From positions 1 through 59,862 of IMG/VR virus record IMGVR_UViG_3300028862_000314: a DNA stretch of 59,862 nucleotides; one strand, 5' to 3'. This document shows positions 26,201 to 43,988 of this stretch, in pieces (the stretch's first letter is position 1; each line of letters starts with the position of its first letter). The DNA comes from a virus (lineage: Duplodnaviria; Caudoviricetes). Position numbers and translations under genes: made by a program. The notes under the pieces were generated by a model that did no database searches, was not told the origin of the DNA, and worked only from the letters and a program-made list of their open reading frames with translations.

Positions 26201-29200
26201 TGTCGGGAATCCTTCGTTTTGTGAAAAGTTTAATGGGTTATGTGAAGGCGTAACCGTACCCGACTCTACAAGCATATATTTACCTGCAATTCGTTCATTG
26301 TTAGGTAGGGTAATTATCTTTTCCCGTCCCTCAATTTTAGGCGAATTGTTATATTTGCTTACAGCTACTTCTCCGGCTTTCCCCGGGAGTAGTTTATTAA
26401 TAACCGGCTTAATTACTCTAGGCGCAAGTGTAGGCACTTCCCCCTGTACCTTATCGGGTACAGATTGTACCCCTGTTGGCTCGTTTGTACCCGTTGGGGT
26501 ATTGCCTAATGATTCTTGTAGGTGCTGATCTCTTTCTTGGTCGCGTCTTTTCTTTTCTTCCCTATTTACCTTATCAATATCGTTTAATTCTTGTTCGGTA
26601 TAGTTTTTTGATGGATCATTGCTACCAACAATTACTTTTGCCGGATAAGTGACTATTCCCGTGTCGGTATCAATAGTTCCTCCATCTATTAGGCTAATAA
26701 TATAATCTCCGTCAGATGGATTCCTTGAAATGTTTAGCGATACGGCTACCTTATTAAAATCATATTTACTTCCTACCTCTAATTCGTAATACTCAACACC
26801 AATTTGTTTTAGCGATTCAACATATTCTTGCTTTTTATTGTTTATTCTATTTTCTATTTCGGGGGTTATAGTGCCTTTTTTGTTTAGATTCTCACGTATT
26901 GTTTCTAGGGACGATATAGCACTAAGCACTGATTCTGAATACTTTTTCTTAGCATCAAATACTGCATATTCATCACTATTAGGATCGTTTTTTATCTGAT
27001 CTAAATTGGGCTGATCTATAATATGCTTTGTAGTCCGTTCTATCCTTTCATCAACTTTCTTTTCAAACTCACTTGTTGCATTTTCTGCAACAGCTGGTTC
27101 AACCGTAGCCGTATTGTCTATGGTTGGCGCATTACCAGAAATGGCGATGCCTCCTTCGTTGCCCTTACTATCTTTACTTTCGTTATCATTCGGGGTCGAG
27201 TGGGAGGCATCGGACCGCACATCGCTAATATTACTATTAGCAGTAGAAGTCACTGGTACAAAGTTAGTAATTAATCCTTCGAGTTTTGCCTTTTGCTCGG
27301 TTAGTTTCTTTATTTCGTGTTCAATTTTTATAGCCTCGTCTAAATCGGAAATATTTTCCTGTTTCTTTTCTGCTTTAGCTATTTTATCGGTAACGGTTTT
27401 AATTATATTATTCAGATAGGTTGTAGCTTTTTCTTCACCAAAAGTATCTTTAAGATAGTTTAGCTTTTGGGTATCATCCATTTGCTTAGTATCTACATTA
27501 CCATCTTTATCGAGTGGGTAATTATTCAACTGTACGTTATTATCGGACGGTTGAACTGTCAACTGTTCTGGATTACTTGACGGTTGCTGTGCTTCAACTA
27601 TACTTTGCTGTTGTGCTAAAATTATATTTTGCTGCTCAATCTGCTGTGCTTGTTCGGCAAGTAGTTGTTCTGCTGGCTGTGCTTCCCAGGTAGTAGGATC
27701 GAAGTCTGTAAAGGGTACGGTAGATACCTTCCCGTTTTCATCTAAGATAATCGGAGGTTGTGAAGGATCTATATTGTCAAGGTCCGGTTTACCTTCTGCG
27801 TTAAGAGTTACACCTGATTTAATGAAATAAGGCTTACCATCAGCATGAAGGTTTGTTATTAAATGCGTTCCGTTATCGTTGAGGACTGGTGTAATCTTAT
27901 CGGAAAGGGCTTGTATGGGGTCCTGCTGTGGCGTAACGGGTGCTTGTGGTTCTGCTCCTGTTAACTGTCCTTGTATTGGCTGTTGTGGTGCTTGTGCTGC
28001 CTGTTCTGCCTGTGCAGTGATTGATTCGCCAGCCTCATAAGCTGATTTTAATATGCTTGCTTCTTTAGGATCGAGTGAAACAACCTTTTCAAAGTCACTT
28101 GCAGGTTCATTCCCAAAATCACCGTCAGATTTAACTACTGTATAATTATCCCCGTTACGTCCAATTACTTCAAAAACAGTTCCGTCCTTCTTGATACCAT
28201 AATTCAAAGTCTGGTTTGACTCTCTGGCCTTATCAATTCGATATGATGTTAATGCACGTCCGTAACCGGTAAGCAATCCCCCCATAACAAAACCACCTAG
28301 TGCAGCCTGCCATGTTTGAGTGCCTAATTCCTTCCAGCTTGCATCTTTATCATACAATCCGGCCTGTAATCCGTATTCAGATACCTGAGCGACAACTTCC
28401 TCAAATGCTTCTTCACCTGGTTGTAACAGGTATTTGTTATAAACAGTCTTTGCAATAGTGGGGTGTTGTGATAGAAACTTCTGGAATATCTCTTTGGCTC
28501 CCTTTTCCCCTGTTGTTTCAAGTATTTCTTTAGCAGCAAGTGTCTGCGCTGCCTTAGTCATATACTTACCCTTAACGAAACGTGAAACGGAACCTAATTG
28601 CTCTGTCCCTGTTTCAATAGCTGCAAACAATACGGCTAGCCCTAACTCTACTTCGGGATCGTAACCGGTTGAAGGTTTACCCTGCTTTATACTTTCATCA
28701 AGGTATTGATGGTATTGCTGTATTCCACTACCTGAACCCATTAAACCGAACACGGGCATAATTGCGCCTTGTGCGCCAGGAACTACCATTGCTGCTGCAA
28801 TAGGTAACATCTGTGGTAACATAGCAAAAGACTGCGCCACATTGGGGTTGGGTGCTTGCTGTATATCTTCTGCGCCTGATTTATTTAATGAGTTAGCCCA
28901 ATCACCTAGAATAGTTGTAGGTTTTGTAGCTAGTTCATTCCACATCTTTCGTTCTTCTTCCGGCTTGGTCTGATCTTCCGATAAAGAAGCAAATACTTCT
29001 CTCGTTGCTCGTTCTGCTGCCCCATAACCAGGTATTGCCGGATTTGATTCAGTCGCCATCCTTGCGACATAATCAGCACCCTGTAAAATAGCTGAACCCG
29101 TTTGTTTGAATCCTGCTTTTAATCCTTGTGTAACGTCACCGGGGGTTTGTCCTGCGTAGTTATCTTCCATGTTGTAACCAATACCTCCCGGCATAGTTAC

Positions 29201-29548
29201 TTCAAGGGGTTTAGGTTCTGCCTGTTTCTTTGCCTGTTCCTCGGTACTTATCTGCGCTCCTTGTTTTGCAAGGTCCATCAAACCACCATAAGTAGAACGG
29301 GCATTATTCCCTATGATATTTGCGTAATAAGGTGTATCAACATCATAAAACGGCTTAACGGTAGGGTTTTCACCTATGAATTTAGGTAACTGGCTGAAAG
29401 GAATAACGGCTGGATCTGCACCACCGATATTAAATAACCCTACTTCCTGTGCATCTGGATAGTCTTTAAGGAACTTATCAGCACTGCTTATTGGTATAGT
29501 AATATCCTGACCGTTGTAATTGAAATATCTGTTACCTTCTACTGGCAT
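17246..29548 (-). CDS. giant polyvalent ejection protein (DarB-like): ParB/DdrB-like, SF2 helicase, N6-adenine MTase, HExxH peptidase, LPD38-like C-terminus
   Basis: 4100 aa; SGNNR (ParB-like), TGTGKT and DESH (helicase), LEPSAGHG and NPPF (MTase), HETVH; C-terminal TVDFDR.G and KIPLP motifs. Confidence 0.8.
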   Translation of the reverse strand: MPVEGNRYFNYNGQDITIPISSADKFLKDYPDAQEVGLFNIGGADPAVIPFSQLPKFIGENPTVKPFYDVDTPYYANIIGNNARSTYGGLMDLAKQGAQISTEEQAKKQAEPKPLEVTMPGGIGYNMEDNYAGQTPGDVTQGLKAGFKQTGSAILQGADYVARMATESNPAIPGYGAAERATREVFASLSEDQTKPEEERKMWNELATKPTTILGDWANSLNKSGAEDIQQAPNPNVAQSFAMLPQMLPIAAAMVVPGAQGAIMPVFGLMGSGSGIQQYHQYLDESIKQGKPSTGYDPEVELGLAVLFAAIETGTEQLGSVSRFVKGKYMTKAAQTLAAKEILETTGEKGAKEIFQKFLSQHPTIAKTVYNKYLLQPGEEAFEEVVAQVSEYGLQAGLYDKDASWKELGTQTWQAALGGFVMGGLLTGYGRALTSYRIDKARESNQTLNYGIKKDGTVFEVIGRNGDNYTVVKSDGDFGNEPASDFEKVVSLDPKEASILKSAYEAGESITAQAEQAAQAPQQPIQGQLTGAEPQAPVTPQQDPIQALSDKITPVLNDNGTHLITNLHADGKPYFIKSGVTLNAEGKPDLDNIDPSQPPIILDENGKVSTVPFTDFDPTTWEAQPAEQLLAEQAQQIEQQNIILAQQQSIVEAQQPSSNPEQLTVQPSDNNVQLNNYPLDKDGNVDTKQMDDTQKLNYLKDTFGEEKATTYLNNIIKTVTDKIAKAEKKQENISDLDEAIKIEHEIKKLTEQKAKLEGLITNFVPVTSTANSNISDVRSDASHSTPNDNESKDSKGNEGGIAISGNAPTIDNTATVEPAVAENATSEFEKKVDERIERTTKHIIDQPNLDQIKNDPNSDEYAVFDAKKKYSESVLSAISSLETIRENLNKKGTITPEIENRINNKKQEYVESLKQIGVEYYELEVGSKYDFNKVAVSLNISRNPSDGDYIISLIDGGTIDTDTGIVTYPAKVIVGSNDPSKNYTEQELNDIDKVNREEKKRRDQERDQHLQESLGNTPTGTNEPTGVQSVPDKVQGEVPTLAPRVIKPVINKLLPGKAGEVAVSKYNNSPKIEGREKIITLPNNERIAGKYMLVESGTVTPSHNPLNFSQNEGFPTTPDGKTVNDRDYGSDKAAQAQVIDIANQYNGKALDNPVIVSPDGIVVSGNNRTMSGELAAGNGTDASYVEQLMQDADMYGFTPEQVSSFKNPRVIFQMNETPEYTTETFAKFNASDQKTQNKVERAIKISKTIKPEQVRKIARVLDRFDTMSDAYASTSATNELIDLMVDSGIITTMDIAEILDGKTFSAIGKDMIETVLIGSVMDESSIRMMNIEGMKQYRLRITKSILPLLENQALGEYSILPEMNGAVVLLGKMRSGEFGSVYDMVSLPDMFDTTPYNLTEVLLADVLTGNQTDTKSFFNSYNEIATANKNGQLGLFNDKVQTKEEILDEIENNAVGQRKSTLNKARTFNAQLSDGGTVNEAPKVNTGSAGSKQKKVAEPKVKAEKPKFAGDAIKQVIKQNDDIDNALNDLLGLLGEEDNTILKHSNGPSDKTPEQLSKINAAGFKLVDAFTKQGVYKFADIISGIESKGVPISPELLSACKKGYASFLLENEDARLDDFTAVRAYTYKINSPKEDKNSDLGRNFDKNNNDVPDRPGSSQPDSGNSANEVPENGTPVLSGRGSSEPVRNETPAGSGKAVRRNRSEGGGGLFANLPGEQGDNEVYQADPKPIVTNNDAGDFDGRGSSIDSPEGHNVNDIVTGKPDGTNNEGLPETFQQRTAKRLIQQQQNESIPVKLMDEANIRQTLPYLLDEQQDDVLKAETRFFSEAHKTKDLANGKGILFTNGTGTGKTFTGLGIIKRFAKQGKGQILIVVPSEPKIKDWIKDGINLGLDITNLEDTKTAGKGINICTYANFRSNDALKNRDLDLIVYDESHRLMEEKKGTASATTYAHFGLSNVSVSTAFQRITDVHPVWIKHREAMTQYRELNASLNNDNAANPAASEAAVKVLSKVIDDLEAKKKELEPALLERAKRAYENTKVVFLSATPFKGHFNLRYANRVLFDYTGEEITNARGSRVDAESRFFLENFGSAYQWKHHQLETKEHSNPEAIAMQEVEFAQKLMSQGVMSGRAIESDMDYSREFPLVALDNAELFNNGLNDIFNYETKEFEGLQSAARDVFYDYNYTTQLFESLKASMVIPRIEKHLALGRKVVVFHRRKQANVSPPFKTIIDRTVSMANEVLNDTNSSAENKEKARLALSQANNFEDKYADLLAYEQTLNYNPAIEQIQAAFGTDRVALINGDVSKANKPANIAKFNKDGSGVDIIVVQEEAGKEGISLHDTSGKNQRVLMSLSMPISSTTALQIEGRIFRIGQESNAIFENPLLGLDMEIENFGRNVNKKLSTTENLAVGDQARDLLRSFAEGVLWNSKTDDPNLEQGKGGKEYDKKAQQQLSEFRRAVLVYNTLQKTTGLRDQREGTDYYATPEPVGQKMVEWLGLQFEESALEPSAGHGAIAMWFPEYATVTAVEPSHALFSKLNARSGGGTRKIINDTFENLNIVNKFHGIAMNPPFGSGGKTAMDHVAKAFTHLKNGGRIVALIPEGKMSDRLDTFLYGTDENGKQINPDAHLVASIKLPSVTFKQAGTSVSTRIVVIDKYEHKSERQFANELGAENGRNYLAGKPILSTDEIQAEASRRFNEQNSKYSYPENLDYSHIEKIEDLFDALEDVTVNERLNVGESQPQQPSITPSNDNVIKIDAPYTLETVKHTQTGADLYMVKLGDRIASDEYAIIKDHAKSFGGFWDKWSKGFRFPDLESRQKFVDKAFAFPDENSIMKHSNSEFAGDHLKRISETQDVSERQKVYLQGQINSSFSIEQTDFTNLPLPERHSLINTEAKSILSELQNKTPLLVVQSEKDVRNWYFDNKASSGHMKEIEDALLDKSADAFFDGTYRHIVVIASRVPSMESIRPTIIHETVHAHNRAFLSARRSQILQYFHDLKGYESIDGMLNKSYDDYTEYDRADEALAYTIQGMIVNGVIPTEEPLTYKQIMDVVEGKEIIDNFERRFISTLYYGTNRKVLYNKPIGDSHSNLSNTGTDSGESQTSQGESGNDSMGTVLSSSQNRPRFAGELLGEGSVNLLKHSSNNNIPPSVNPTVDAERPQFAGMQMKRIIGKKDYGDRFADWIAENVHSVDLWQQEMAKDGIKGLKLFDVYSLLRRRKGLIKGLVDTFDEGVFTDLQTEIAHLIDQQHVSSKEIQRYLKAKSAIERNDNEGIRAISEDPEDSWNRQTVEQIVKEFEQKISPNLIDSLWSKVKASTDFTIDNLYLHSVITKEDHDKFNDRKYYIPLRGWEYDEMNPNPEDFYDYVNNEGQGITSQTYVKATIKAKGRTSEPGDPLPYIRQMAHSAIMTSVKNKIARTALQLFRMNKDNPAMGQYMYIKAPFKGNAHEAKRTRATAEKHEIMGYDNGDRFTLVLGDPHVAQSIKGENVLLKETSKWLGNSWMGKLTQFMKANFTGKNPNFFLNNFMFIDLPYAAITEGIRKEGEAGQFIRQIVTGKSFGTIHRDIRKQLNPLSQAETITAGLHNKQSIVSAIQQYGEQRVLDTLYKMWKDSGGPTGWMQLESFEKSAEKIEKEINRIRAKEADFGKGTGKLSGKDKVFYNYPLRKGAELMTYVMDMSEQSSRFAVFVSRKMAGQSSEQAALASKEATVDFDRTGQASTVFNQLFAFFKPTVSATYGIYKMGKENKAKFGYALGSFFALGVLQAILAYMTMPDDEGGENTYDNIPDYDKLNNLIINRGDGKYVKIPLPQFFRAIYALGVTSTMAAMGKLSAGEFAASNLKNLTGALTPFNVSGDDLGRTLVPTALTPAYDIAVNQNFAGKKVHKEQFTTKLEDRIPGSQEGLNSTFEPLVQATQWLNEFGGGNEYTKAGQGLDPETGLKEDNTLKTMLFDWNPADIQHVSETVGGGRVKFFRQVFNTAYNAVTPDGKMNEWDVPLFYRYLGRSQDSNPMSTYYNALKAVDEYKYQINNLKKDDPKEALQMMNKYQFMNELTYITKLADKNIKNIENNAENATSSEAMLKYKTDAENAAKIFKTQVGTLEKKYKINLK

Positions 29549-32048: not shown

Positions 32049-34886
32049 ATGGGTCAGATCGCAAACATATCACCGAAAGGAATCATAAGGAACACCCCGG
32101 ATTCGTCATGTGTAGATGGTTCTTTGTTGGAAGCTATCAATATCCGCTTTCGTGATGGGGCCTGGCGTGGTATCGGTGAGAAGAAAGCAACAGGATATTA
32201 TGCTGAATCTGTTTTTATTCTTGATGGCATAGCGTATCACCCGGCACTTCCTGTTAATACCTATGTGGTCCATAACTCGGCAGACAATAAGATTTATACC
32301 GTTCTTTTCACAAATGGTAGTGCTGTTCAGGTTTCAACTGCTGTTCTTACGCTGGAATCGGGAGAGGTATTCAGTAGGTTTTCGCATCTTGGGAATGTAT
32401 TATTTGTTTTCACGGACAGGAGAAAGTATTTATTGTATTGGGATGTTAAGACACTCGCTTATATCAATCTGACTAAACTACCACAACCTAACATGCAGGT
32501 TGTTTCAATTCCCACAACTGACGATTTAGATTATTTTATTGCGGAGTTTAACATACCGGAACCTGTTGGATTAGTCGAAACAGGCGTTGGATCAGTTGTT
32601 GAGGAATACATTAAGAACCAGGTAATGAGTTCATATTACTTGAAGATGGATTCATACAAAACTCTGAATTATATCACCGGAGTTTTCCTTTTGCGTATAG
32701 CTTACAAGCTATTCGATGGTACTTATATCAATCACAGTATTCCAATATCTGTTTCAATAAGCCCAACAACAGGAACATATTTTATACCCGTAATAGCATA
32801 TTGGACCGTAACTGGTGGCTATCATGCTACAATGAGGGGGATAGCCGTATCAAAAAATATATTCAAGTATGATTTCTTTAATGCTGTCGATTTTAATTTT
32901 AAAGATTATTACGATGCCGGTATTATTGAATCAATGGATATTTTTTGCACTGAACCATTCGTTACACGTGACTACAATCCTAATTCAATGGTTTGGGGTC
33001 ACACGACATTGCCGTCTGGAGCAATTGCCCTTACCCCTAATTTAAGGCCTGAGTTTAATACAATTATCGAAGATGCCGTATTCTATAAAATGCACTCTAT
33101 ACCGGTTTCTGATCTCGTTAAAACTACAAATAACGTAGGTAAATACGGAAGGATAGAGCTTGACTTCAGTAAGATTGTTTCAACTAACGAGTTAATGCCT
33201 GCTGATGATTTTTCACATCACGGAATTAATGCGCTGGCAGATTATCAATACAATAGCAGGATGCACCTGGGTAATGTTTCGATTCTTCCTACATTACCAT
33301 TAGACAACAGTGTTAACCCTCCGGTGATAGGAATAAAAGCTGACCTTTCCGGGTTAGAGTTACCCGTAGAAGGTACTGATAGCTCGCTGATTGTTTCTTA
33401 TGATCCATACACCGGGTTAGATATTCGCTGCCGTGTGTACATTAAAACAGCAAACGGAGTTGTTATTGTTGATGGACCTGTACCTAAGAACAGGCCGGAA
33501 ACAGAAGCAGATGGTGTTACCATAACAGGTATATTCACCCCGGCAAATTACTCTTATGCTTTCTTCACCGATTCAACCAATAACTATATAGCATTAAGGA
33601 ACCTTATTTCATATCCAGATTACCGGGCTTATAAAATGAGATTCTATTATACTTACCTCGGAATAAAGTATGTGTTGGCGGATTTTGATTTAAAACCTGC
33701 AACAAATATGAACATTGCTTACTTCGGTACTATCCCGGAATCAACTACTTCAAATGTCATTAACCTGACAATGCCACTTACTTTAACTGCTGGCACTGTT
33801 TATACTGATACGGATTGGAACATTACAAACATCATCCGCGACACAAACCGTATGCAGGTATCAGAAATATTCAATCCTTTTATCTGGCCTGCTAAGAACT
33901 CATATAGATTCGGATTGATACACAATGAACTCATAGACATTTCAACGGTACAATCGCAAATGAGTGATTCCGCTTTTGGTATGTACCCTATTTATGTTTT
34001 CACCAGGTCAGGAGTTTACGCTATCCAACACGGGACCGGGGAAGTACTATATCAAAGTATTCAGCCCTTGAATAATGAAATACTTATTTCTCGTGGCTCG
34101 TTGTGTGCTATCAGCGGAAGTATTGTGTTTGCCTGCAAAGAAGGAATAAGGGTTATAACAGGATCTAACAGGCCGGAGGAGATAAGTATTCCTGTTGAGG
34201 GTTCAATTAATAACCCATTAGCCCTACTGCCGTATTATTATGATGCTCTCACGGGGTTCAGGCTCCCACAAATCAATAATTACCGTACAGGAGTAACCTT
34301 TTTAACCTACATTCAGGCTGCTAAGATTTTTTACGATGTTGAGAACAAAGAAATAATTGTATCAAATCCGGCATATCTGTACTCATACGCATACTCTCTG
34401 TTCACTGAAAGCTGGGCCACAAGGACTGATGTATTCACCGATGTACTTGTTATCGCTGGCAGGCAGATAGCTGTTAAGCGTAGCTCTGCAATGGATGGCG
34501 ACACGTTGGTATATACTTCTTCCCTTCATTACCTAGACACGGAAGATACTACAACAGGCCTATGTGATTACATGCTGATGCAGACAAGGCCCCTCAATTT
34601 CTCAAACTCGGCAAATAAGCATATCAATAAGCTAATAAGCAGGTGTAGAGTTATCACAAAGAATCAGGAGAACGCTATACAAATAGTTGTTGGTAGTAAT
34701 GACTTGATTACTTGGCAGATAATATCATACGTTCAGTATAGCGGAGATCAAGCAAATATGATAAATACTAATCCGTCAGGCAATTTTAAATACTTTGTAA
34801 TAGCTATTGCCGGAGAAAGAAAAGGATTCTACCTTAACCAGATTGATATTGACTGGAAGGAAAGATTTAATGATAAACTACGATAA
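32049..34886 (+). CDS. tail nozzle/stabilization protein (tail tubular B / P22 gp10-like)
   Basis: 945 aa beta-rich; DG.L.E.IN, YNSRMHLGN, SE..NPF, FG.YPIYVF motifs. Confidence 0.7.
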   Translation: MGQIANISPKGIIRNTPDSSCVDGSLLEAINIRFRDGAWRGIGEKKATGYYAESVFILDGIAYHPALPVNTYVVHNSADNKIYTVLFTNGSAVQVSTAVLTLESGEVFSRFSHLGNVLFVFTDRRKYLLYWDVKTLAYINLTKLPQPNMQVVSIPTTDDLDYFIAEFNIPEPVGLVETGVGSVVEEYIKNQVMSSYYLKMDSYKTLNYITGVFLLRIAYKLFDGTYINHSIPISVSISPTTGTYFIPVIAYWTVTGGYHATMRGIAVSKNIFKYDFFNAVDFNFKDYYDAGIIESMDIFCTEPFVTRDYNPNSMVWGHTTLPSGAIALTPNLRPEFNTIIEDAVFYKMHSIPVSDLVKTTNNVGKYGRIELDFSKIVSTNELMPADDFSHHGINALADYQYNSRMHLGNVSILPTLPLDNSVNPPVIGIKADLSGLELPVEGTDSSLIVSYDPYTGLDIRCRVYIKTANGVVIVDGPVPKNRPETEADGVTITGIFTPANYSYAFFTDSTNNYIALRNLISYPDYRAYKMRFYYTYLGIKYVLADFDLKPATNMNIAYFGTIPESTTSNVINLTMPLTLTAGTVYTDTDWNITNIIRDTNRMQVSEIFNPFIWPAKNSYRFGLIHNELIDISTVQSQMSDSAFGMYPIYVFTRSGVYAIQHGTGEVLYQSIQPLNNEILISRGSLCAISGSIVFACKEGIRVITGSNRPEEISIPVEGSINNPLALLPYYYDALTGFRLPQINNYRTGVTFLTYIQAAKIFYDVENKEIIVSNPAYLYSYAYSLFTESWATRTDVFTDVLVIAGRQIAVKRSSAMDGDTLVYTSSLHYLDTEDTTTGLCDYMLMQTRPLNFSNSANKHINKLISRCRVITKNQENAIQIVVGSNDLITWQIISYVQYSGDQANMINTNPSGNFKYFVIAIAGERKGFYLNQIDIDWKERFNDKLR

Positions 34887-34901
34887 TAAACTAAAATAGT
34901 A

Positions 34902-35195
34902 ATGGCAGCACCACTTGGACATAAGAAAGCAGGAGGCAGACAGAAAGGCACGACAAATAAGTCTATTAGTGATTTGCGCTCTATATTCAGCACTCTGCTT
35001 ATCAATAATGAGGGTAATATGCAGACATGGATAGACAAACTAGCTCAACGTAATCCAGGCAAGGCACTAGAGATTATAACAAAAATGGCTGATTATCTTA
35101 TTCCTAAACCAATTCAGGAAGGTGAGAAGTCACCGGAACTTGATTGGTATGCTGAACAAGCCCGGAAGATGATGGAAAAGAGTAAGACTGGCTAA
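34902..35195 (+). CDS. terS: putative terminase small subunit
   Basis: GHKKAGGRQKGTTNK and Y.IPK motifs typical of small terminases. Confidence 0.65.
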   Translation: MAAPLGHKKAGGRQKGTTNKSISDLRSIFSTLLINNEGNMQTWIDKLAQRNPGKALEIITKMADYLIPKPIQEGEKSPELDWYAEQARKMMEKSKTG

Positions 35196-35481
35196 GGATA
35201 TTCAAATTCCCTGTTATGTATTCTTCAATAGCTAAATACTGATTATAAAAGTCACTATCAATATTACAATCCCTAAATTTGTTCATCGAATGATATACTC
35301 TCTGTATGTCGCATCCTAATATTTCAACTACTTGGTGATCGCTTAACTTTGTGGTCCGCTTCAACGCTATTATAATAATCTGATGGCAGCGCATAACTCG
35401 CCTGGCGCGACTACTCCTGAACTCTTTTGGAGTAACAGAATAAGTTTTACATACGAGTTCTATTATTTGCGCAGGTGTCAT
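35104..35481 (-). CDS. DnaA C-terminal-like HTH protein
   Basis: IIELVCKTYSVT...S.R.R and LS...V..ILG.D...VYHS. Confidence 0.55.
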   Translation of the reverse strand: MTPAQIIELVCKTYSVTPKEFRSSRARRVMRCHQIIIIALKRTTKLSDHQVVEILGCDIQRVYHSMNKFRDCNIDSDFYNQYLAIEEYITGNLNILSQSYSFPSSSGLVQHTNQVPVTSHLPELV

Positions 35482-36149
35482 ATATGAATCTGATTAATCG
35501 GTGATTGAATCCTGCTAATTAGTTTATCAGAAATATGAGTGTAGATAAGAGTAGTCTTTACGTTATTATGACCGGCAAGCTTCTGGATCAGATTAATGTC
35601 AGTACCGGCCTCTACCATGTGAGTGAATGCACAATGTCTGATTAAGTGTGTGTAAACTCTTTTACTTATTCCGGCCTTTTCTGCCAGTTGTTTCATAACT
35701 TCATTCACCGATCTATCTGAATACTGAATACCAAACTGTCCATTAAGGACATATTCCTTTGAATGATATTCTTTGTAGTACTTTTCGAGCAGTGGAATAA
35801 TGACATCAGGAAGCATCACTTGACGGTCTTTATTTCCTTTGCCCGCAACAATGTTTATAATCATTCTGGACCTGTCAATATGGGACCATTTAAGATTGAT
35901 TAATTCACTTACTCTTAATCCTGTTGAATAGAGAAGTGTTAGTATTACTTTATGCTTCGTATTTTCGCATACACTGAACATTCTTTGAATTTCATCCTGG
36001 GATAAAACTATTGGCAGTTTATTATTTTTCTTAGCGTAAGGAATCCACTTGAATTTATCTTTTTGATTCAGGCATATATCATAGAATTTCTTAATTGCAC
36101 TGTGATAACATTTTTGAGTGTTGGCAGCAATACAATAGCTACCTGACAA
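35478..36149 (-). CDS. tyrosine recombinase (integron-integrase-like), apparently 5'-truncated at the first cassette junction
   Basis: KLP.VLS, GLRVSE, GKGNKDR, HLIRH, GH, TLIYTH give an intact R-K-H-R-H-Y set; only a TTG start, located inside cassette 1. Confidence 0.85.
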   Translation of the reverse strand: MSGSYCIAANTQKCYHSAIKKFYDICLNQKDKFKWIPYAKKNNKLPIVLSQDEIQRMFSVCENTKHKVILTLLYSTGLRVSELINLKWSHIDRSRMIINIVAGKGNKDRQVMLPDVIIPLLEKYYKEYHSKEYVLNGQFGIQYSDRSVNEVMKQLAEKAGISKRVYTHLIRHCAFTHMVEAGTDINLIQKLAGHNNVKTTLIYTHISDKLISRIQSPINQIHI

Positions 36150-36564
36150 TTTTGTTTATAAGTTGAATTGGGGTACAGTTAAATTTTTCAGAAAGATTAA
36201 AAATTGTCATTGCTTGGTTTCTTGTTGCTGTCAAATCTAACTTCCATCTTATTTCTGCAAATATTCCGTTTTTACGCATTCCGGATAAAGTAAATTTTGA
36301 TACGTCCATTTGTCCGGGTACGCATTCTCTACACCAAAAATCATCTTGTTCATCTTCGGGTAGTTGATTATAGTATTGTTCTACTTTGTCAAAATCTAAA
36401 ATAGCAACATAGTTATCATCATCATCGTTCTCGAACCCACTTTTAAAAGGTTTCGAGTGTTTGCATCCTGAAAAGGCTTGTATTACCTTTTCACCACAAA
36501 TGAAAAATGTACTGCTGCCAACAACAGGTATATTCAATTGCGGGGTTTGTGGTAATTCGTTCAT
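36139..36564 (-). CDS. cassette 1 hypothetical protein (start inside attC loop)
   Basis: N-terminal LNIPVVGSST is encoded by the attC arm. Confidence 0.7.
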   Translation of the reverse strand: MNELPQTPQLNIPVVGSSTFFICGEKVIQAFSGCKHSKPFKSGFENDDDDNYVAILDFDKVEQYYNQLPEDEQDDFWCRECVPGQMDVSKFTLSGMRKNGIFAEIRWKLDLTATRNQAMTIFNLSEKFNCTPIQLINKIVR

Positions 36565-36646
36565 TTATTATCGTATTTAAGTTATTACTGTTTGATAATT
36601 TTGCGCTTCGTAGTCCGCAACTGAAATATACCCGCGGACGTTAGCC
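36516..36646 (+). repeat. attC-like site 1
   Basis: TGCCAAC..GGTATATTCAATTGCGG / CCGCAACTGAAATATACC..CGTTAGCC. Confidence 0.8.
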
Positions 36647-36733
36647 AATAAGTTGCGCTGTAATCGTGTCTTAAAAATCTAATCCAATTCAAGACGGTTT
36701 CGCAGCAATTCAATGAGCATTAGCGCAACCTAT

Positions 36734-37230
36734 TGCTAACAGAGTATATAAAAAATTAAATGGTTTGAGCAATCTGTGCGGGTTCGGCTGTCAAATCTTC
36801 GCCAGTTAAAGCATACCACAAGTTTTGCAATTGGTGTACAAAGTTTATTTCAGCAATCCACACTTCTGATTCTCCAAAATAAACCTGTCCTTCAACAGTA
36901 ATTACCAATTCACCTTTGTTATAGTATCCAGGGTGTCCGATCTCAAATCCAAGTTTCATTAACCAATATTCTGATATTGTCTTACCTTCTAATTCAGAAA
37001 ATGAAATAAGGTCAGTTTTTAATTTATCCTCAAATAAATATTCAACTCTTGCGAAATCGTATTTAATTTCAACAACGGTCAACAATGCCGGCTTGCCTAC
37101 TATCGGGTCCCATTTATACGATAAATAATTCCCAATTTTTAATTCACTTTTTTTCATGTTTTTACAATATTTAGGTAGAGTTAGTATTTTAGGTAACCAT
37201 TTAACTTTTCATATACTCCATACGTTATAA
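36734..37230 (+). repeat. attC-like site 2 (gene in loop)
   Basis: CTAAC.GAGTATATAAAAAATTAAATGGTT / AACCATTTAACTTTTCATATACTC..CGTTATA. Confidence 0.8.
36756..37157 (-). CDS. cassette 2 phage protein (ELKIGN...VHQLQNL family)
   Basis: Paralog of 12908-13264. Confidence 0.7.
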   Translation of the reverse strand: MKKSELKIGNYLSYKWDPIVGKPALLTVVEIKYDFARVEYLFEDKLKTDLISFSELEGKTISEYWLMKLGFEIGHPGYYNKGELVITVEGQVYFGESEVWIAEINFVHQLQNLWYALTGEDLTAEPAQIAQTI

Positions 37231-37613: not shown

Positions 37614-38150
37614 TGCTAACATGGCATAAGAACAAGTGCTGGCGGTGCTTCGATTTAGCATTTCAACTAATTTTACCATAATTATTTTTTTGCCAACGCT
37701 AAAACTTCTTTATTGTATTTTTTCTGATAACCTTGAAATATATGTGGAAAATTTTTTCCAGTACATACCATATAAATTGCAGTCTGTGAAACATTATATC
37801 TTAAAGCAAGTTCCTTTTTGGATGTTCCATTTTTTAAAACTTCAATAATTATTCTTATTGCTTTAAAATCATTTAATTTTCTGTGTGGATTTCTGAATGA
37901 CCGAACATTCATTCCTTTTGGAGTTTTTGATTTGCATATTCTTTGTATGTGATTAAAATTAACTGGATATAATTCTGCAATTTCTTTTGAAGATTTATTT
38001 TCCACAAACCATAAATTTTGTATTTCCAGTTTTTGTTTTTCTGTAAGTTTTATATTACTCATATTTCCCCTCCTTAAAAAAATAATTATTACTGTAGTGT
38101 TTCAATCATACTGTACGTTTGCACCTGTTCCTATGCCGATACCGTTAGCA
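37614..38150 (+). repeat. attC-like site 4 (gene in loop)
   Basis: CTAAC..GGCATAAGAACAAGTGC / GCACCTGTTCCTATGCC..CGTTAGC. Confidence 0.8.
37682..38062 (-). CDS. cassette 4 tandem-HTH DNA-binding protein
   Basis: SSKEIAELYPV and SKKELALRYNVSQTAI motifs. Confidence 0.7.
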   Translation of the reverse strand: MSNIKLTEKQKLEIQNLWFVENKSSKEIAELYPVNFNHIQRICKSKTPKGMNVRSFRNPHRKLNDFKAIRIIIEVLKNGTSKKELALRYNVSQTAIYMVCTGKNFPHIFQGYQKKYNKEVLALAKK

Positions 38151-38234
38151 ACTATATGCGCATAACAGCAACTATAAAAACGATTCCAACACTTAACACT
38201 TTCGCAGCAAGTCCGGGCAGATAGCGCATACAGT

Positions 38235-39038
38235 TGCTAACACAGTATATAACAAACGCGAACGGCACAGCAACTATTAAAGGGTAATCGTTTATCATCA
38301 CAAATAATAACATGGTTGTACAAGTGGTTTTTACCATAATTCAGGCTGTAATTTATAATTTTGAAATCTTTTCTCTTGTGCGTCGTAATAATCTTTGTCA
38401 TTCTCAAATCCTACAAAATCAATGTTGCCAGTTCTGTATGCTGCAATTCTGTTTGATCCTGATCCTAAATGCGTATCAATTACTTTTCCGCCTTCAGGTA
38501 AATAGTTTCTGTAAATCCAACTGTAAAGCTGAACCGGCTTTTGTGTTGGATGTATTTTGTTTTTCTCGAGCAGTACGGAATATCTAAATATCTTATTTGA
38601 TCCATCAAATGAAGTCCAAGCGTAATCAAACATTCCAAAGCTAAGTTTTTCGGGTTGTCGCTTATCCCAGATAATACAATGTTTTGTTGCTGGAAGTGGA
38701 TAATAGTTGCCACCCCAAATAATCTGATTTTTGGAAATTCTGAAAAGTTCATCAAAGTATTCCATTGATATTGGCTTATTATCCCATTTCTTTGCGGTCA
38801 ACCCTTTGTCTGTTACTAATCGAGGGCTATTACCTATACCAATTCCAAATTCAGGATCAACCACAGCCAAATCAAAACAGTTGTCGGGATAGTTACGCAT
38901 GTTCACAAGGCAATCATCGAAAAAAACTATATTATTCATGTTGGTTCAATATTTAGGTAAAGTGAGCGTTATTATTTGTTTACTTTTCGTTTGCAATCAG
39001 GCAGTGGGTTGCGCTTGTCATATACTAATACGTTATGG
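38235..39038 (+). repeat. attC-like site 5 (gene in loop)
   Basis: CTAAC..AGTATATAACAAACGC / GCGCTTGTCATATACT..CGTTATG. Confidence 0.8.
38331..38939 (-). CDS. cassette 5 DNA amino-methyltransferase (N4/N6, beta class)
   Basis: DPEF motif IV variant, HPTQKP, IDTHLGSGS. Confidence 0.85.
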   Translation of the reverse strand: MNNIVFFDDCLVNMRNYPDNCFDLAVVDPEFGIGIGNSPRLVTDKGLTAKKWDNKPISMEYFDELFRISKNQIIWGGNYYPLPATKHCIIWDKRQPEKLSFGMFDYAWTSFDGSNKIFRYSVLLEKNKIHPTQKPVQLYSWIYRNYLPEGGKVIDTHLGSGSNRIAAYRTGNIDFVGFENDKDYYDAQEKRFQNYKLQPELW

Positions 39039-39087
39039 GCAACCGTAAGACCGCTCCGAAAGGCAGCCTTACGACGCCACAATTTCA

Positions 39088-39225
39088 CTACTTTAGTTTT
39101 GCAACCAATTCAAGTAGTTTTTCTACTACGGTCGTAACCGCTTCTTTTTTCTCTGCCCTCATTAATGGGTCAATGCTTGCCGATAAAGTGGCAATTGCGT
39201 TTAATAAATCCTGTTGATTTTCCAT
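39088..39225 (-). CDS. cassette 6 small helical protein
   Basis: MENQQDLL...; ORF can be extended to 39285. Confidence 0.5.
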   Translation of the reverse strand: MENQQDLLNAIATLSASIDPLMRAEKKEAVTTVVEKLLELVAKLK

Positions 39226-39281
39226 ATAAATTGTGGGTTTTACAATGCCCTCCCAAGGCGTATTATTTAAAAAACGGCAGC

Positions 39282-39377
39282 CCATAACACGTTGTATACG
39301 TCAGTTTTGCCGTGTAATTTCGTATAAATTGATAGCTGTGTGCAGGCAAAACCGCACGCATACAACCACCGTTAGCC
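39282..39377 (+). repeat. attC-like site 6
   Basis: CATAAC..GTTGTATACGTCAGTTTTGCC / GGCAAAACCGCACGCATACAAC..CGTTAGC. Confidence 0.8.
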
Positions 39378-39464
39378 AATAAGCTACGCATACAGCGTGT
39401 AATAAAACGTTAATCTTAATTTTCAATCTTCGCATCGGTTCAGAAAGTTTGGTGCGTAGCCTAT

Positions 39465-39891
39465 TGCTAACAGCGTATATAACAAAATAAATTATTTGGG
39501 CTGTACGTGTGGCTCGGTAGGCGCATTCATCGCTTCATAATCAATGTACACATCATACAGTTGTTCTGTTGTACGCCAAACATTTATGTCGTAAAAAGAC
39601 CAATAAGATTTAACCCAAACCTTTTGATTTGCATCTGTTGGATGTTGTCTGCATATCCAATTATACTTAGTAGTCCATTCAACAAAATCAATTGCCATTA
39701 TTTTTGAATAGTTAGACATGGCATCAAGTACTTCTGGAACATCAAATGTTATTTTAACACCTGGTCTCCTTCTTTCTCTTGCCTGTTTAAGTATTTCTAA
39801 TCTTGTTATGCTTTCCATAATTGTACAATATTTAGGTAAAGTGTGTAATTGAGGTAATAATTTCTCTTGTCATATACGCCATCCGTTAGTT
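39465..39891 (+). repeat. attC-like site 7 (gene in loop)
   Basis: CTAAC.GCGTATATAACAAAATAAATTATT / AATAATTTCTCTTGTCATATACGC..CGTTAGT. Confidence 0.8.
39492..39818 (-). CDS. cassette 7 hypothetical phage protein
   Basis: AIDFVEW...TTEQLY motif; same leader as the cassette 2 and 5 genes. Confidence 0.65.
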   Translation of the reverse strand: MESITRLEILKQARERRRPGVKITFDVPEVLDAMSNYSKIMAIDFVEWTTKYNWICRQHPTDANQKVWVKSYWSFYDINVWRTTEQLYDVYIDYEAMNAPTEPHVQPK

Positions 39892-40080
39892 GCAATTACA
39901 GAAAAACTCAACAACTGCTGAAATAATAACTACATATACAGAAACATACAATAAAGTATATAAGATATAAAGTGATTGGTCTCCGTTGTAGGTTTTATAA
40001 TGAAAATCAGCCGTTTTAATAGATAACCAAATTGTTAACCCGAAAGTCACAAAAAATCCTAATAATATTAAAGTATTCAT
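39886..40080 (-). CDS. cassette 8 two-TM membrane protein (TAA stop in crossover core)
   Basis: Two hydrophobic segments; ATG at 40080. Confidence 0.6.
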   Translation of the reverse strand: MNTLILLGFFVTFGLTIWLSIKTADFHYKTYNGDQSLYILYTLLYVSVYVVIISAVVEFFCNCN

Positions 40081-40098
40081 AATTAATTTAATAACTGC

Positions 40099-40227
40099 AA
40101 CTAACACTAAATATAAAATATACGGGTGTCAGTGCATATTTGAACGGTATTACCTTTAATTTGCTTTCGTGTATCGGGATAGGATACCGCTTTTAATCCC
40201 GTACATTTCATATTTTTAACGTTGGCA
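40099..40227 (+). repeat. attC-like site 8
   Basis: CTAAC..AAATATAAAATATACGGG / CCCGTACATTTCATATTT..CGTTGGC. Confidence 0.8.
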
Positions 40228-40233
40228 GCAATA

Positions 40234-41028
40234 CTACCAAAGTGCCAGTTTCAAGTTTCGTTTATAATTGAACCATCTTTTTTCTTCGTCCTGAAAATAT
40301 TCCGAATCAATTTCAGTGCCGACAAATTCGCATTCAAATTTATCTGCAGTAATTCGGCTACTTCCTGAGCCTAAATGTGTATCAATTACTTTCATTTTGT
40401 ATATGCCAAATTCTTTAAAAATAGCATCGTAGAGCATCACTGGCTTATGGCAAGGGTGTATTCTTTTTTCATTTAGTTTTTTGTTTCCTTGCTGTACCAT
40501 TGGTTCACTAAGGCTTTTCGCTTGCATCATTCCAGCCCATAAAAGCGGTATTTCAATTTCGTAATTAATAGAGCTGCAGTAAGCATATTCAAATTGGTTA
40601 AAACTTACACCTTCCGCAAATCCTTTATTCCATTTAATTCGTCCTTTGCCTAATCCTGTCCATTCGGTATAGTCAGCTCCGAAAATTATTTGGTTTTTGC
40701 TTATTCGTTTTAGTTCATCAAAATATGCTTGAGGTGGTGTGGCATTATCCCAATCCTTAAAAGTATGTTTATGTTTATTTCTGTTTGGGTTTATTCGAGT
40801 TCCATTTTTTTGTTTTACAGTCGTTTTGGTTTCTTTCAAATAAGCCATTTTAGCAACTCCAATCCCATAAGGTATGTCACAAACCGCCCAATCGAAATAT
40901 TTATTAGGAAACAAACCCATAACAGACGAATAATGAGCATTAAACACCGTACTGCTGCCAACAACAGGTATAGCAAATAAAGGCTGCTGTGGTTTGCGGT
41001 CGGTAGTGCTTTCTATATTATTCATCAT
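40234..41028 (-). CDS. cassette 9 DNA amino-methyltransferase (N4/N6, beta class; start inside attC loop)
   Basis: DIPY motif IV variant, HPCHKP, IDTHLGSGS; FAIPVVGSST from attC arm. Confidence 0.85.
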   Translation of the reverse strand: MMNNIESTTDRKPQQPLFAIPVVGSSTVFNAHYSSVMGLFPNKYFDWAVCDIPYGIGVAKMAYLKETKTTVKQKNGTRINPNRNKHKHTFKDWDNATPPQAYFDELKRISKNQIIFGADYTEWTGLGKGRIKWNKGFAEGVSFNQFEYAYCSSINYEIEIPLLWAGMMQAKSLSEPMVQQGNKKLNEKRIHPCHKPVMLYDAIFKEFGIYKMKVIDTHLGSGSSRITADKFECEFVGTEIDSEYFQDEEKRWFNYKRNLKLALW

Positions 41029-41085
41029 CGGTTGATAGTTTACTGGTTTCTAATCCTTTACTTGCCATACCTGCGACCGTTAAGT
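40956..41085 (+). repeat. attC-like site 9
   Basis: GCCAAC..CAGGTATAGCAAATAAAGG / CCTTTACTTGCCATACCTG..CGTTAAG. Confidence 0.8.
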
Positions 41086-41106
41086 GCAATACCTACGCAC
41101 GAAACA

Positions 41107-41592
41107 CTATTTAATTTTAATTCCTAATCCTATTCCACTATAAACAGCAAGCCCTATACCTCCTACAATCAACCCTCCGTCTATTGTAGCGTTAAATATT
41201 CCTACGCTAATCATAGTGTAACCTATTCCGGCCTCTGCCTGAAACTTCTTTGCTATATCCCAACTATCATCACTGCAGTGGTGTTCAAGTTTGGCCTGTC
41301 CTATTCCTGCATTGATCGTTACACGGTTAAATGATCGTGATGCACCTACAACAAATGATTGGTTTGTGTCGAAGCAATCCTCCGTATTTTTACCTTCCTG
41401 CCAGCTTACGGCAGCATAAGAGGCTATATATCCTCCCCATGTCGGAGAAGTATAAAATAACTTACCGCTTGCCTGCCCGTCTGAGTTATAGTGAATAGCT
41501 GCGCCTATCACTTGTGAGTTAGCCTTTATTGGGATCTGCGCCAATAAGAATATCATAATTGCAATAGCTGATAATTTTAATGCTGTTTTCAT
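41107..41592 (-). CDS. secreted, putative small outer-membrane beta-barrel protein
   Basis: Signal-peptide-like N-terminus; alternating Gly/aromatic strands; C-terminal GIGLGIKIK. Confidence 0.55.
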   Translation of the reverse strand: MKTALKLSAIAIMIFLLAQIPIKANSQVIGAAIHYNSDGQASGKLFYTSPTWGGYIASYAAVSWQEGKNTEDCFDTNQSFVVGASRSFNRVTINAGIGQAKLEHHCSDDSWDIAKKFQAEAGIGYTMISVGIFNATIDGGLIVGGIGLAVYSGIGLGIKIK

Positions 41593-41990
41593 AGCTTTGA
41601 GTATTTGATTATTACTTGAATAAGATTGAATCTGTCATGTTTATATGCTTTTTTGTAACTTGCCTGGGCAAAAAAATCTAACTGATCTACTCTTTCGTTT
41701 CCAATTTTTTTAACCAGATTCTTCCGATACTCTAACAGGTTCCCGTGTTTATGGTAGTTACATTGTAGGCACTGTCTATGTACATTGTCCTCGTTGAACT
41801 CCATTGAAGCATAATGTCCTGCCGAATAAAAGTGTCCGGCTTGTGGGTCATTACGTGTTCCGCAACTTATACAGCCCTGTTCTTCATCCCTTTTTCTTAT
41901 CCATGCCCTAAATAGTTTACCGGCCTTGGTTCGTAGTTGTGGAACTGAGTATTTTTTGTAATGCTGTATTTGAGTTGCTGTGAGTTCCAT
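41589..41990 (-). CDS. ninG: NinG/Rap-like recombination endonuclease
   Basis: IRKRD..CISCG..AGHF..FNEDNVH.QC..CN..KHGNLLEYR. Confidence 0.85.
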   Translation of the reverse strand: MELTATQIQHYKKYSVPQLRTKAGKLFRAWIRKRDEEQGCISCGTRNDPQAGHFYSAGHYASMEFNEDNVHRQCLQCNYHKHGNLLEYRKNLVKKIGNERVDQLDFFAQASYKKAYKHDRFNLIQVIIKYSKL

Positions 41991-42039
41991 TACAGTTGTA
42001 AGTGTTAAATATTAAATTCAAATTGCTTTTCTTTTGCTG

Positions 42040-42306
42040 TTAAAAATCATAATCCCTAGAGAGTAGTATTGATTCTGCCGTAATTGGATCACAATTATTT
42101 TCTTTGGTGATGGAATCTATCATGTAATCGTGCCACAACTCATAAGGGGTTAGTTTTATTTCACTATGATTAACCACCCATATACTGAACTTTTTAGATT
42201 CTTTGTTTGAATAAATCTGCATAGCATCCAGTATATTTGATAAACTTTCATCGGGGATGCTCTTAATCTCTATTGCTTCACTGAGTATTTCTAATGCTTC
42301 TGTCAT
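42040..42306 (-). CDS. hypothetical protein
   Basis: ORF in early/middle operon. Confidence 0.55.
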   Translation of the reverse strand: MTEALEILSEAIEIKSIPDESLSNILDAMQIYSNKESKKFSIWVVNHSEIKLTPYELWHDYMIDSITKENNCDPITAESILLSRDYDF

Positions 42307-42309
42307 GTG

Positions 42310-42531
42310 TTAAATTATTGATTCAATTTTCTTTATCGCGCTATAAACTCCGCTTGTTGTTGTGTTAAATAATTCAGCTATTCTGCTTGAAACTAAATAT
42401 GATTGTTTGTTGAGAGCGAAATAACAAGCGTGTCTACACATAAAGTTTTTTTTAAAGTCCTTTGGTTTAATCCCGTAGTAGCTACAAATCTTTTCTATAA
42501 CTACATGAGGTGGTGTATCGTGGGTGTTCAT
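42310..42531 (-). CDS. DnaA C-terminal-like HTH protein
   Basis: IEKICSYYGI...RH..Y...S.RIAELFN....VYSAIKKI. Confidence 0.55.
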   Translation of the reverse strand: MNTHDTPPHVVIEKICSYYGIKPKDFKKNFMCRHACYFALNKQSYLVSSRIAELFNTTTSGVYSAIKKIESII

Positions 42532-43986: not shown

Positions 43987-43988
43987 TT

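Follow-up and report, generated by a model that had tools for sequence, protein, structure and literature searches.

How does a recombinase gene at the end of a row of small gene cassettes come to lose its own beginning exactly where the neighbouring cassette ends? This question is raised by the IMG/VR virus record IMGVR_UViG_3300028862_000314 (Duplodnaviria; Caudoviricetes), a linear sequence of 59,862 nucleotides (nt) with an estimated completeness of 69%, which is called the window in what follows. The gene in question is a truncated open reading frame (ORF) for a tyrosine recombinase, located on the minus strand next to an array of cassettes at 36.1-41.1 kb. Typical phage genes flank the region of recombinase and array on both sides, for which reason a prophage/host junction (attL/attR) was rejected for the window. 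The answer that we favour, with a probability of roughly 0.7, is a very recent 5′ truncation of the gene for a Xer/IntI-related recombinase of 275 amino acids (aa), at the end of an integron-like cassette array of a Bacteroidota phage, by which the end of the last cassette was joined to a look-alike AAC triplet inside the gene.

The truncated recombinase gene and its junction

In the window protein, Pfam recognizes the Phage_integrase domain (PF00589) at residues 48-208 with 136.3 bits against a cutoff of 27.1, and integrase families of PHROG match the ORF at E = 1.6e-41. A protein search retrieved 2916 relatives of the recombinase at E <= 0.001. A length of 275-277 aa is shared by 116 of the 120 best homologs listed, the exceptions measuring 223, 245, 262 and 300 aa; a natural length of about 220 aa, considered in an earlier reading of the letters alone (the sequence-only reading), is thus not that of the family. 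The top match, P0001 (275 aa), is identical from N62 to I275 to residues N10-I223 of the window protein. In other words, only 35481-36122 (-), that is, 214 codons, derives from the recombinase, residues 1-61 are gone and nine unrelated residues, MSGSYCIAA, substitute for them. The codons of these nine residues fall within the 3′ flank of ORF141, the adjoining cassette, and the reading frame itself opens two codons upstream of the TTG, directly after a TAA. The cassette origin of the nine residues, the lack of an ATG and the count of about 214 remaining codons had all been perceived in the sequence-only reading and are borne out here; the alignment to full-length homologs that it had proposed sets the missing N-terminus at 61 residues.

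The full-length form P0001 carries a SAM_4 domain (PF13495) at residues 9-80 and Phage_integrase at residues 100-260 (Pfam). The truncation has removed 53 of the 72 residues that make up this SAM-like DNA-binding domain at the N-terminus; the window copy retains 62-80, and no SAM-like domain is found by Pfam in the window recombinase. Residues R79, H168, R171, H194 and Y203 are invariant columns in an alignment of 12 members, and we take them to be the tyrosine recombinase catalytic set R..HxxR..H/W..Y. As the residues of the catalytic domain are invariant with the family, no decay has set in since the truncation event, and because the retained 214 codons are wholly identical the event is judged to be young: the window gene is a fresh pseudogene. 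By established knowledge of tyrosine recombinases, its 223-aa product is most likely inactive for recombination, three quarters of the core-binding domain being gone. To judge from the arrangement of the reading frames, the 223-aa frame could be reached solely from the TTG, placed 6 nt ahead of the ORF141 stop, by coupling to ORF141.

The missing N-terminal piece is absent from the window, as had been noticed before. A homology search at E <= 10 returned residues 61-275 only, and a tblastn search of the window with the first 70 residues gave only residues 62-70 at the junction, the next best match having E = 0.14. Since no 5′ piece is present in the window, deletion or replacement fits better than the insertion of a cassette into the gene, which had been the initial interpretation.

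The break falls at 36122|36123, within the recombinase frame as originally reported; the plus strand reads ..GAGTGTT|GGCAGCAATAC and the gene strand GTATTGCTGCC|AAC ACT CAA. The cassette end at this point is contained in a 14-mer, GTATTGCTGCCAAC (- strand), which occupies 36120-36133 and recurs at 40221-40234, so that the identity of the two cassette ends also holds. With up to two mismatches the 14-mer has 7 matches against 1.78 expected, a number reached in 0 of 100 shuffles.

The junction is genuine and no assembly artefact. The sister samples are peat metagenomes; contigs were compared in four runs, and X1, X3, X4 and X6 are among the runs examined. A Logan contig of run X1 (2924 nt) covers 34304-37227 with 0 differences, and an exact-sequence look-up places the 223-aa product on 6 Logan/ENA and 5 JGI contigs. 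Forms of 275 aa are present on 3 contigs, P0001 on two of them and P0179, which is 96% identical, on one of 27.9 kb. In X3, record 10 (2011 nt) matches 34304-36122 with 0 differences and continues with 192 unlike letters, a length that 61 codons and 9 further nt would take up. In X4, one contig stops at 36122 and another starts at 36119; the latter includes AACA and would fit a second form with an A after the AAC, and in the closest relatives, too, an A follows the AAC (AAC ATA..). Because contigs of both forms are recorded in the sister samples, the intact and the truncated gene coexist in one phage population. A further X4 contig, record 22 (1851 nt), matches 39484-40223 and diverges thereafter, at the same base of the motif as the recombinase junction. 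The read depth in X3, 2.7-4.3 over 36136-36936 versus 5.4-7.9 in the flanks, is too coarse for inference.

The site ahead of the intact gene in relatives

Recombinase loci were gathered from viral contigs, metagenomes and GTDB genomes, and the named hosts are almost all Bacteroidota. For the 275-aa clade, 54 distinct upstream regions (41-83% identity) were considered. Of these, 52 contain the pattern AAC-N3-6-AT[ACT]T[AG]T at most 110 nt from the ATG, as opposed to 68 of 2881 random 110-nt windows of the same loci. In particular, the AAC lies 52-56 nt from the ATG in 50 of the 52, a second look at the two outliers revealing a site at 54 and 55 nt, and the two upstream regions without the pattern have near-variants. 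An attI-like site inside the gene, one of the explanations first offered for the window, is thus not supported by the position of the site in the relatives. The general form of the site is a variable, cassette-specific arm followed by AAC-N3-6-ATATGT. The variable bases ahead of the AAC loosely follow (GT)ATTGC-NN-CT, which is also the pattern of the window 14-mer; the exact 13-mer is absent from 17 loci of other genomes, the motif being conserved only as a pattern.

Gain and loss of cassettes in these relatives is bounded by the AAC. Specifically, six pairs of loci combine an identity of 90% or more over the 50 nt that follow the AAC with one of 50% or less over the 60 nt that precede it, and in all six the identity ends 1-2 nt ahead of the AAC. 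An inverted partner of the 13 nt ending in AAC is found at most 1.2 kb upstream in 17 of 44 loci when one mismatch is allowed and in 25 of 44 when two are allowed, against 17 of 880 shuffled controls at up to two mismatches. In one locus (L068), ORF93 stands directly before an intact recombinase gene, with the flanks TTATATACGTT-GTTAGCAGAAGTAC and GTATTTCTGCTAAC-ATACAATATGT. Moreover, two loci of one assembly, L043 and L059, have in common a recombinase module and an upstream block, and differ in the unrelated genes between the two AAC sites, which amount to 1732 and 632 nt, respectively.

Distant chromosomal relatives, which share at most 48% identity and mostly have longer N-termini, form a group without a site at -52 to -56 among the 72 genome loci, the matches in L156 and L164 being at -69 and -95. 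A first, stricter pattern was present in 11 of the 72 genome loci with an upstream region, nine of these being close relatives, with identities of about 64% or more apart from L121 at 48%. None of the relatives shows a junction at codon 62, for which it had been suggested to look. In some relatives (L011, 7154-8834) the recombinase and an upstream methylase lie between portal-like and protease/capsid genes; the unit therefore occupies different genome places in different phages.

Joints of the same kind can be read in cultured Polaribacter phages. The ten Freya isolates have integrases that are 100% identical, yet they fall into 7 genome lengths, from 43,978 to 48,920 nt, and the integrase starts at 7 different record positions. 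Four Freya records were compared, and five joints in Freya_1, Freya_5 and Freya_10 were resolved to the exact base. Freya_10 corresponds to Freya_1 with an additional 4942 nt carrying 12 small ORFs, placed exactly between ..TTATTGTTTAC and AACACCCCTATAAC.., 49 nt ahead of the integrase ATG, and in Freya_5 ..ATTGTTACC is joined to the same integrase-proximal AAC. In all Freya joints examined, the AAC comes after an arm ATTGTTNNN, and the flanks share 99.8-100% identity over the compared stretches. As ten isolates with identical integrases display seven genome lengths, the system seems to be active within a single bloom. In Leef_1, whose integrase is 37% identical to the window recombinase, TATAC-CCGTT-GTTAGCTTT is followed after about 160 nt by AAAGCTAAC-GCCCC-TATATAC, 57 nt before the integrase ATG.

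The deposited Freya records L003, L186 and L190 (Freya_1, Freya_10 and Freya_8, respectively) themselves open exactly on an AAC joint of the array or immediately behind it: that of Freya_1 has its start at the integrase-proximal AAC, and that of Freya_8 at Freya_10 position 903, directly behind an AAC. The paper on these Polaribacter phages gives a size range and one integrase, and in its main text, as far as this is accessible, the words cassette, indel and variable region are absent (PMC8776804).

How the gene may have been cut

According to the reading that we favour, the recombinase gene would normally open a unit that starts at the AAC, and cassettes would be joined there through their right-end arm. 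In the window, the right-end arm of the ORF141 cassette (GTATTGCTGCC|AAC) would have been joined to the AAC of codon 62. The simplest history would be a deletion between the true proximal site and the in-gene look-alike, which would take away codons 1-61 together with the proximal right half-site and some 54 nt of the promoter/5′ region. We infer that sequence was deleted and not replaced; that the recombinase itself made the cut has, in our estimate, an even chance. The box of the look-alike, AAATGT, is one mismatch from ATATGT and stands at an allowed spacing. Such a near-ATATGT box follows 62 of the 2569 AAC triplets of the window and one of the nine in the retained part of the gene, this one being the junction AAC.

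The left end of the truncation bears on the mechanism. It equals to the base the cut point at the second copy of the motif, and equals likewise the boundary in six of six pairs of relatives and in every Freya joint examined, coincidences that a random deletion end would rarely give; in addition, the right end has the rare look-alike box. Both ends speak against the foremost alternative, namely that the same deletion or replacement arose through general or illegitimate recombination, or through replication slippage at AAC(A) microhomology, as ordinary mosaicism of phages at conserved short repeats with a regulatory role, in the manner of the PeSL elements of T4-like phages, with the recombinase uninvolved and the upstream box acting only as its promoter. 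We consider this alternative unlikely, even though much in the region would agree with it. Many breaks of the sister samples lie at ORF starts and within ORFs, intergenic promoter-like repeats (..TTTACCTAAATATTG..ATG) and common 3′ ends are present, the gene has internal deletions in L043 and L059, the Danklef integrase is truncated away from an AAC joint, and shuffling of the PeSL type is documented, going by the accessible text of the papers on it (PMC2839356, PMC4122927).

Several further observations weigh against the favoured reading. The half-site inside the gene is a weak look-alike: it has one mismatch, stands at the upper end of the spacing range and is expected by chance at about 2.4% per AAC. 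X1, the sole run with a listed junction-crossing contig, is probably the source sample of the window itself and thus not independent. The breaks of the sister samples that are at ORF starts or inside ORFs, and not at an AAC, lie at 36355, 37153, 39285, 39940, 40102 and 40306, and general recombination therefore also shuffles the region. A metagenome scan with P0001 (44 loci) missed the contig of the full-length form, and a scan of viral contigs with an exact 33-mer of the gene gave 0 stretches. That ORF141 lies upstream of the intact gene is therefore presumed, and the event may have been a replacement through recombination with another genome. The recombinase activity of this clade is predicted from sequence. 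Lastly, in the Danklef phages the DNA homology resumes at about codon 117, some 60 nt past an AAC site and not at an AAC joint.

These phages are one of several cases of decayed copies. L043 (2564-2860) and L059 (2503-2630) have different in-gene deletions of an 82%-identical recombinase in one assembly, the N-terminal 78 or 39 residues being joined to the last codons; L096 retains residues 120-270 only and L098 residues 225-273 only. In the cultured Danklef_1-5 (Polaribacter), the Freya-type integrase match covers residues 96-271 of the Freya protein only, and the annotation gives an 'integrase' of 43 aa and, antisense over the remainder, a hypothetical ORF (L191, Danklef_1 38476-43988). Danklef thus resembles the window as a cultured relative with a homologous integrase devoid of its 5′ part, and differs from it in the event; none of L043, L059, L096, L098 and Danklef breaks at codon 62. 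The published table, in its accessible part, still counts one integrase for Danklef. The recombinase gene, in short, is often lost, and such phages still propagate without an intact copy.

The other explanations fare worse. Integron integrases do insert cassettes at secondary sites, and a record that is 69% complete could leave out a 5′ piece of the gene; one or more cassettes inserted at an internal site of the gene, with that piece surviving outside the contig, would nevertheless be quite improbable, as no such piece lies in the 59.9 kb, including 23.7 kb on the cassette side, and beyond the array other phage genes continue. Still less credit is due to a programmed arrangement, in which an in-gene site ties expression to the first cassette or an inversion between the motif copies a and b (Table 1) toggles genes. 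ORF141 and ORF264 each stand between inverted copies of the site and the TTG start overlaps the end of ORF141, but 116 of the 120 listed homologs are full length, the site is upstream of the ATG in 52 of the 54 regions and a codon-62 break recurs in no relative. The inversion switch in particular was rejected, since an a/b inversion, as read from the sequence, yields no open frame, the compared upstream regions contain 0 minus-strand matches and no strand-changing joints are listed among the contigs of the four runs. An assembly chimera of two phages, for which the shortness of the repeat and the coexistence of related genomes in the samples might speak, can be dismissed, as the X1 contig crosses the joint without a difference and the truncated product appears in 11 contig entries from different pipelines.

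The favoured reading bears on one more proposal of the sequence-only reading, namely that self-inactivation froze the array. Self-inactivation is indeed what we favour; the freezing is not borne out, as variant cassette-border arrangements exist in the sister samples, though these may stem from genomes whose recombinase is intact.

The array and its place among known systems

Table 1. Position of the recombinase gene, joining sites, palindromes and cassettes in the window
Feature	Position	Strand	Description
ORF125	35104..35481	-	ATG overlaps recombinase stop (ATGA)
Truncated tyrosine recombinase ORF	35478..36149	-	223 aa, TTG start, 5′ part missing
Look-alike right half-site in gene	36096..36122	-	AAC ACTCAA AAATGT TAT, codons 62-68
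Junction site 'a'	36120..36133	-	Half-site of the cassette end, GTATTGCTGCC + AAC, joined to codon 62 of the recombinase
ORF141 cassette, adjoins recombinase	36139..36564	-	Conserved small-protein family; stop 6 nt past recombinase TTG
Site 'b'	36509..36533	-	Inverted full site ATATAC-CTGTT-GTTGGCAGCAGTAC inside ORF141 leader (..IPVVGSST)
attC-like imperfect palindrome after ORF133	36626..36749	-	ATATAC-TCT-GTTAGCAATAGG..(~60 nt)..CTTATTGGCTAAC-GTCCGCGG-GTATAT, one bulged G
Second palindrome, same family, after methylase ORF202	38144..38250	-	z = -3.9
Third palindrome, same family, after ORF108	39371..39480	-	
Site 'c'	40221..40234	-	Same 14-mer GTATTGCTGCCAAC, directly after ORF264 stop; variant genome breaks 40223|40224
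N6/N4 DNA methylase ORF264	40234..41028	-	Leader holds inverted site 'd' (40949-40962), peptide ..IPVVGSST

All intergenic joints of the array read ..T/C-AAC-G.. on the gene strand, and four of them (three full-size, one short) adjoin imperfect palindromes of about 100 nt. The palindromes have the form ATATAC-N3-GTTAGCAA..TTG(G)CTAAC-N7-9-GTATAT, with a bulged G in two; their boxes, GTTAGCA and GTTGGCA, are only a partial fit to the GTTRRRY of attC, and an Rfam scan gave one chance-level match only (E = 0.52). In IMG/VR the long-palindrome pattern matched 2 stretches, neither of them on a contig with the recombinase. An unrelated phage contig without recombinase (L065, 4624-5100) has a near-identical copy of the palindrome that follows ORF133, and to this copy belong the final ~11 codons (..AEPA...TI*) of an ORF that is unrelated in other respects.

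The 14-mer also has one-mismatch inverted copies, at 36509-36522 and at the site 'd' of Table 1, both in the 5′ leaders of cassette ORFs, where they encode ..IPVVGSST... More generally, several unrelated genes have an inverted site ATAC-C-N-GTT-GTT-(A/G)GC within their coding leaders, where it translates to ..IPVV(G/S)..; its carriers are ORF141 (36509-36533), ORF264 (40949-40973), an ORF at 1882-2451 of L059 (..LPIVGSSS..) and Leef1_37 in L001 (2090-2120, ..IPVVS..). As the genes are unrelated, it is the DNA site that imposes the shared peptide.

ORF141 belongs to a family with 56 homologs that have a conserved body, the leader being found in some only. The idea that it is a decayed methylase was rejected, as it shares just the 17-residue leader with ORF264 and has these homologs; likewise, the 14-mer is not a conserved 3′ flank of the family, being present in 0 of 6 viral loci with homologs. 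The conserved C-terminus of ORF141 resembles a helix-turn-helix. In L100 (4001-5223) an ORF141 homolog (63% identity) stands immediately upstream of a distant tyrosine recombinase (23% identity to P0001), an adjacency found in one of six viral loci with ORF141 homologs. On the other side of the recombinase gene, ORF125 matches Bac_DnaA_C (helix-turn-helix) at 28.7 bits, under the Pfam cutoff of 31.5. Between ORF264 and ORF73, a 122-nt intergenic element (40102-40223) is covered 6-10 times as deeply as the remainder of the phage in X1, X3 and X6 (in X1, 33.8-93.6 versus about 7-9 elsewhere) and occurs also in other arrangements, with the joints 40227->39285 and 39310->40102; the element is therefore shared by other, more abundant genomes in the same samples. 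Elsewhere in the window, 4100 codons at 17246-29548 (-) make up one open reading frame.

The integron-like nature of the array, proposed at the outset, holds in view of the conserved proximal site and of the AAC joints in relatives. It can be envisaged that Bacteroidota phages have an integron-like gene-capture platform of their own, formed by a recombinase, a dedicated site and a cassette array, and that the window represents a 'suicide' cut at a look-alike in the platform's own gene, a proposal that could in our judgement equally well hold or fall. Its parts would be a Xer/IntI-related recombinase of 270-290 aa that lacks the IntI insertion; a dedicated site, some 50-57 nt ahead of the start codon; and upstream, co-oriented small cassettes (methylases, helix-turn-helix proteins, unknowns) with matched inverted arms or attC-like palindromes and AAC joints. 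The proposed range extends from phages of peat metagenomes to cultured marine Polaribacter phages, and among Bacteroidota phages such a cassette system seems to be common. No description of such a phage system was found in full-text literature searches aimed at it, and the context is probably an undescribed variant of integron-like gene capture in phages.

The value of the truncated gene lies in its being a pointer to the surrounding system, as its exact break position led to the conserved proximal site and to the single-triplet cassette joints of dozens of uncultured phages and of Polaribacter phages. If the recombinase does drive the joints, Bacteroidota phages would possess a dedicated way of capturing and shedding small genes, including anti-restriction methylases, through a mechanism that neither classical integrons nor homologous 'mosaic' exchange represent. 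With the Freya isolates and their Polaribacter host, the idea could be put to a direct test in the laboratory, and the peat phage population, in which intact and truncated forms coexist, allows the dynamics of arrays that have the enzyme to be compared in nature with those of arrays that lack it.

Among known systems, the PeSL elements of T4-like phages are similar in their small ORFs, in the hyperplastic region and in promoter-plus-hairpin repeats at the ends of indels, and differ, according to the accessible text of PMC2839356 and PMC4122927, in relying on homologous recombination with no need of a dedicated recombinase. Here, in contrast, the joints fall on one triplet and the recombinase gene is part of the unit. 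Ends within long repeats and no fixed cut point, as in PeSL, are not what the recombinase-proximal joints display, their identity stopping 1-2 nt from the AAC, whereas some other break points of the sister samples do fit this kind.

Modules of the Xer/dif type offer a second comparison. A dimer-resolution module of the XerS/difSL-like kind has a single recombinase and, next to its gene, one dif-like site of two inverted arms around a 6-8 bp spacer. In the phages a site adjoins the recombinase gene at a fixed distance, and XerA is the best solved relative of the recombinase (E = 3e-33); yet there are many sites per genome rather than one, and dyad arms with a 6-8 bp spacer are not clearly apparent. 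The pdif/dif modules of Acinetobacter plasmids, as described in the accessible parts of PMC13141974, PMC6449649 and PMC12907356, are bounded by Xer-type sites, often inverse, are shuffled between replicons and involve a Xer-like recombinase; they depend on host XerC/XerD and on 28-bp dif-like sites, whereas the present system has a single recombinase, encoded by the phage, and a site placed at a constant distance ahead of the gene for it.

In its architecture the system is like the integron. Both have a tyrosine recombinase gene with an adjacent cassette-joining site, and joints that adjoin a GTT/AAC triplet. In four window junctions, moreover, an ORF is accompanied by an imperfect palindrome whose outer boxes are conserved and whose centre varies, with a bulged base and a spacer that stays unpaired. 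A recombinase-proximal joining site is present in the relatives (52 of 54), and in the window its proximal half is deleted. Recombination with secondary sites, which IntI is known to perform, would be a further point in common with the cut at codon 62. IntI4, too, comes directly after XerA among the solved relatives (E = 1e-31). Differences stand beside these likenesses. In the alignment with IntI4, residues 177-199 of P0001 (23 residues) stand opposite residues 181-246 of IntI4 (66 residues), the family being 275-277 aa long versus about 320-340 aa for IntI; lacking the IntI-specific insertion, the phage recombinase is therefore not an integron integrase. The site sequence differs as well, the phage cassettes are upstream of and co-oriented with the recombinase gene, some of them have the ORF inside an inverted pair, and the platform is phage-borne.

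A further comparison is with the attC clusters without integrase (CALINs) that Qi et al. 2023 (PMC9892861) described in virulent phages, one of them a phage of Polaribacter. In the accessible part of that paper these clusters share with the window attC-like sites, some of them divergent in direction, and methyltransferase cassettes; no integrase is reported there for the clusters, which were tested with IntI1. Here, on the contrary, a non-IntI recombinase clade with its own conserved site stands at the end of the array. The Polaribacter phage of Qi et al. is not among the 19 Polaribacter records that match the recombinase (17 of Freya/Danklef, with 2 left for Leef). The present clade may be the missing enzyme of the attC clusters in flavobacterial phages, and a recombinase driving the joints would then explain the integrase-less, attC-like clusters reported in these phages.

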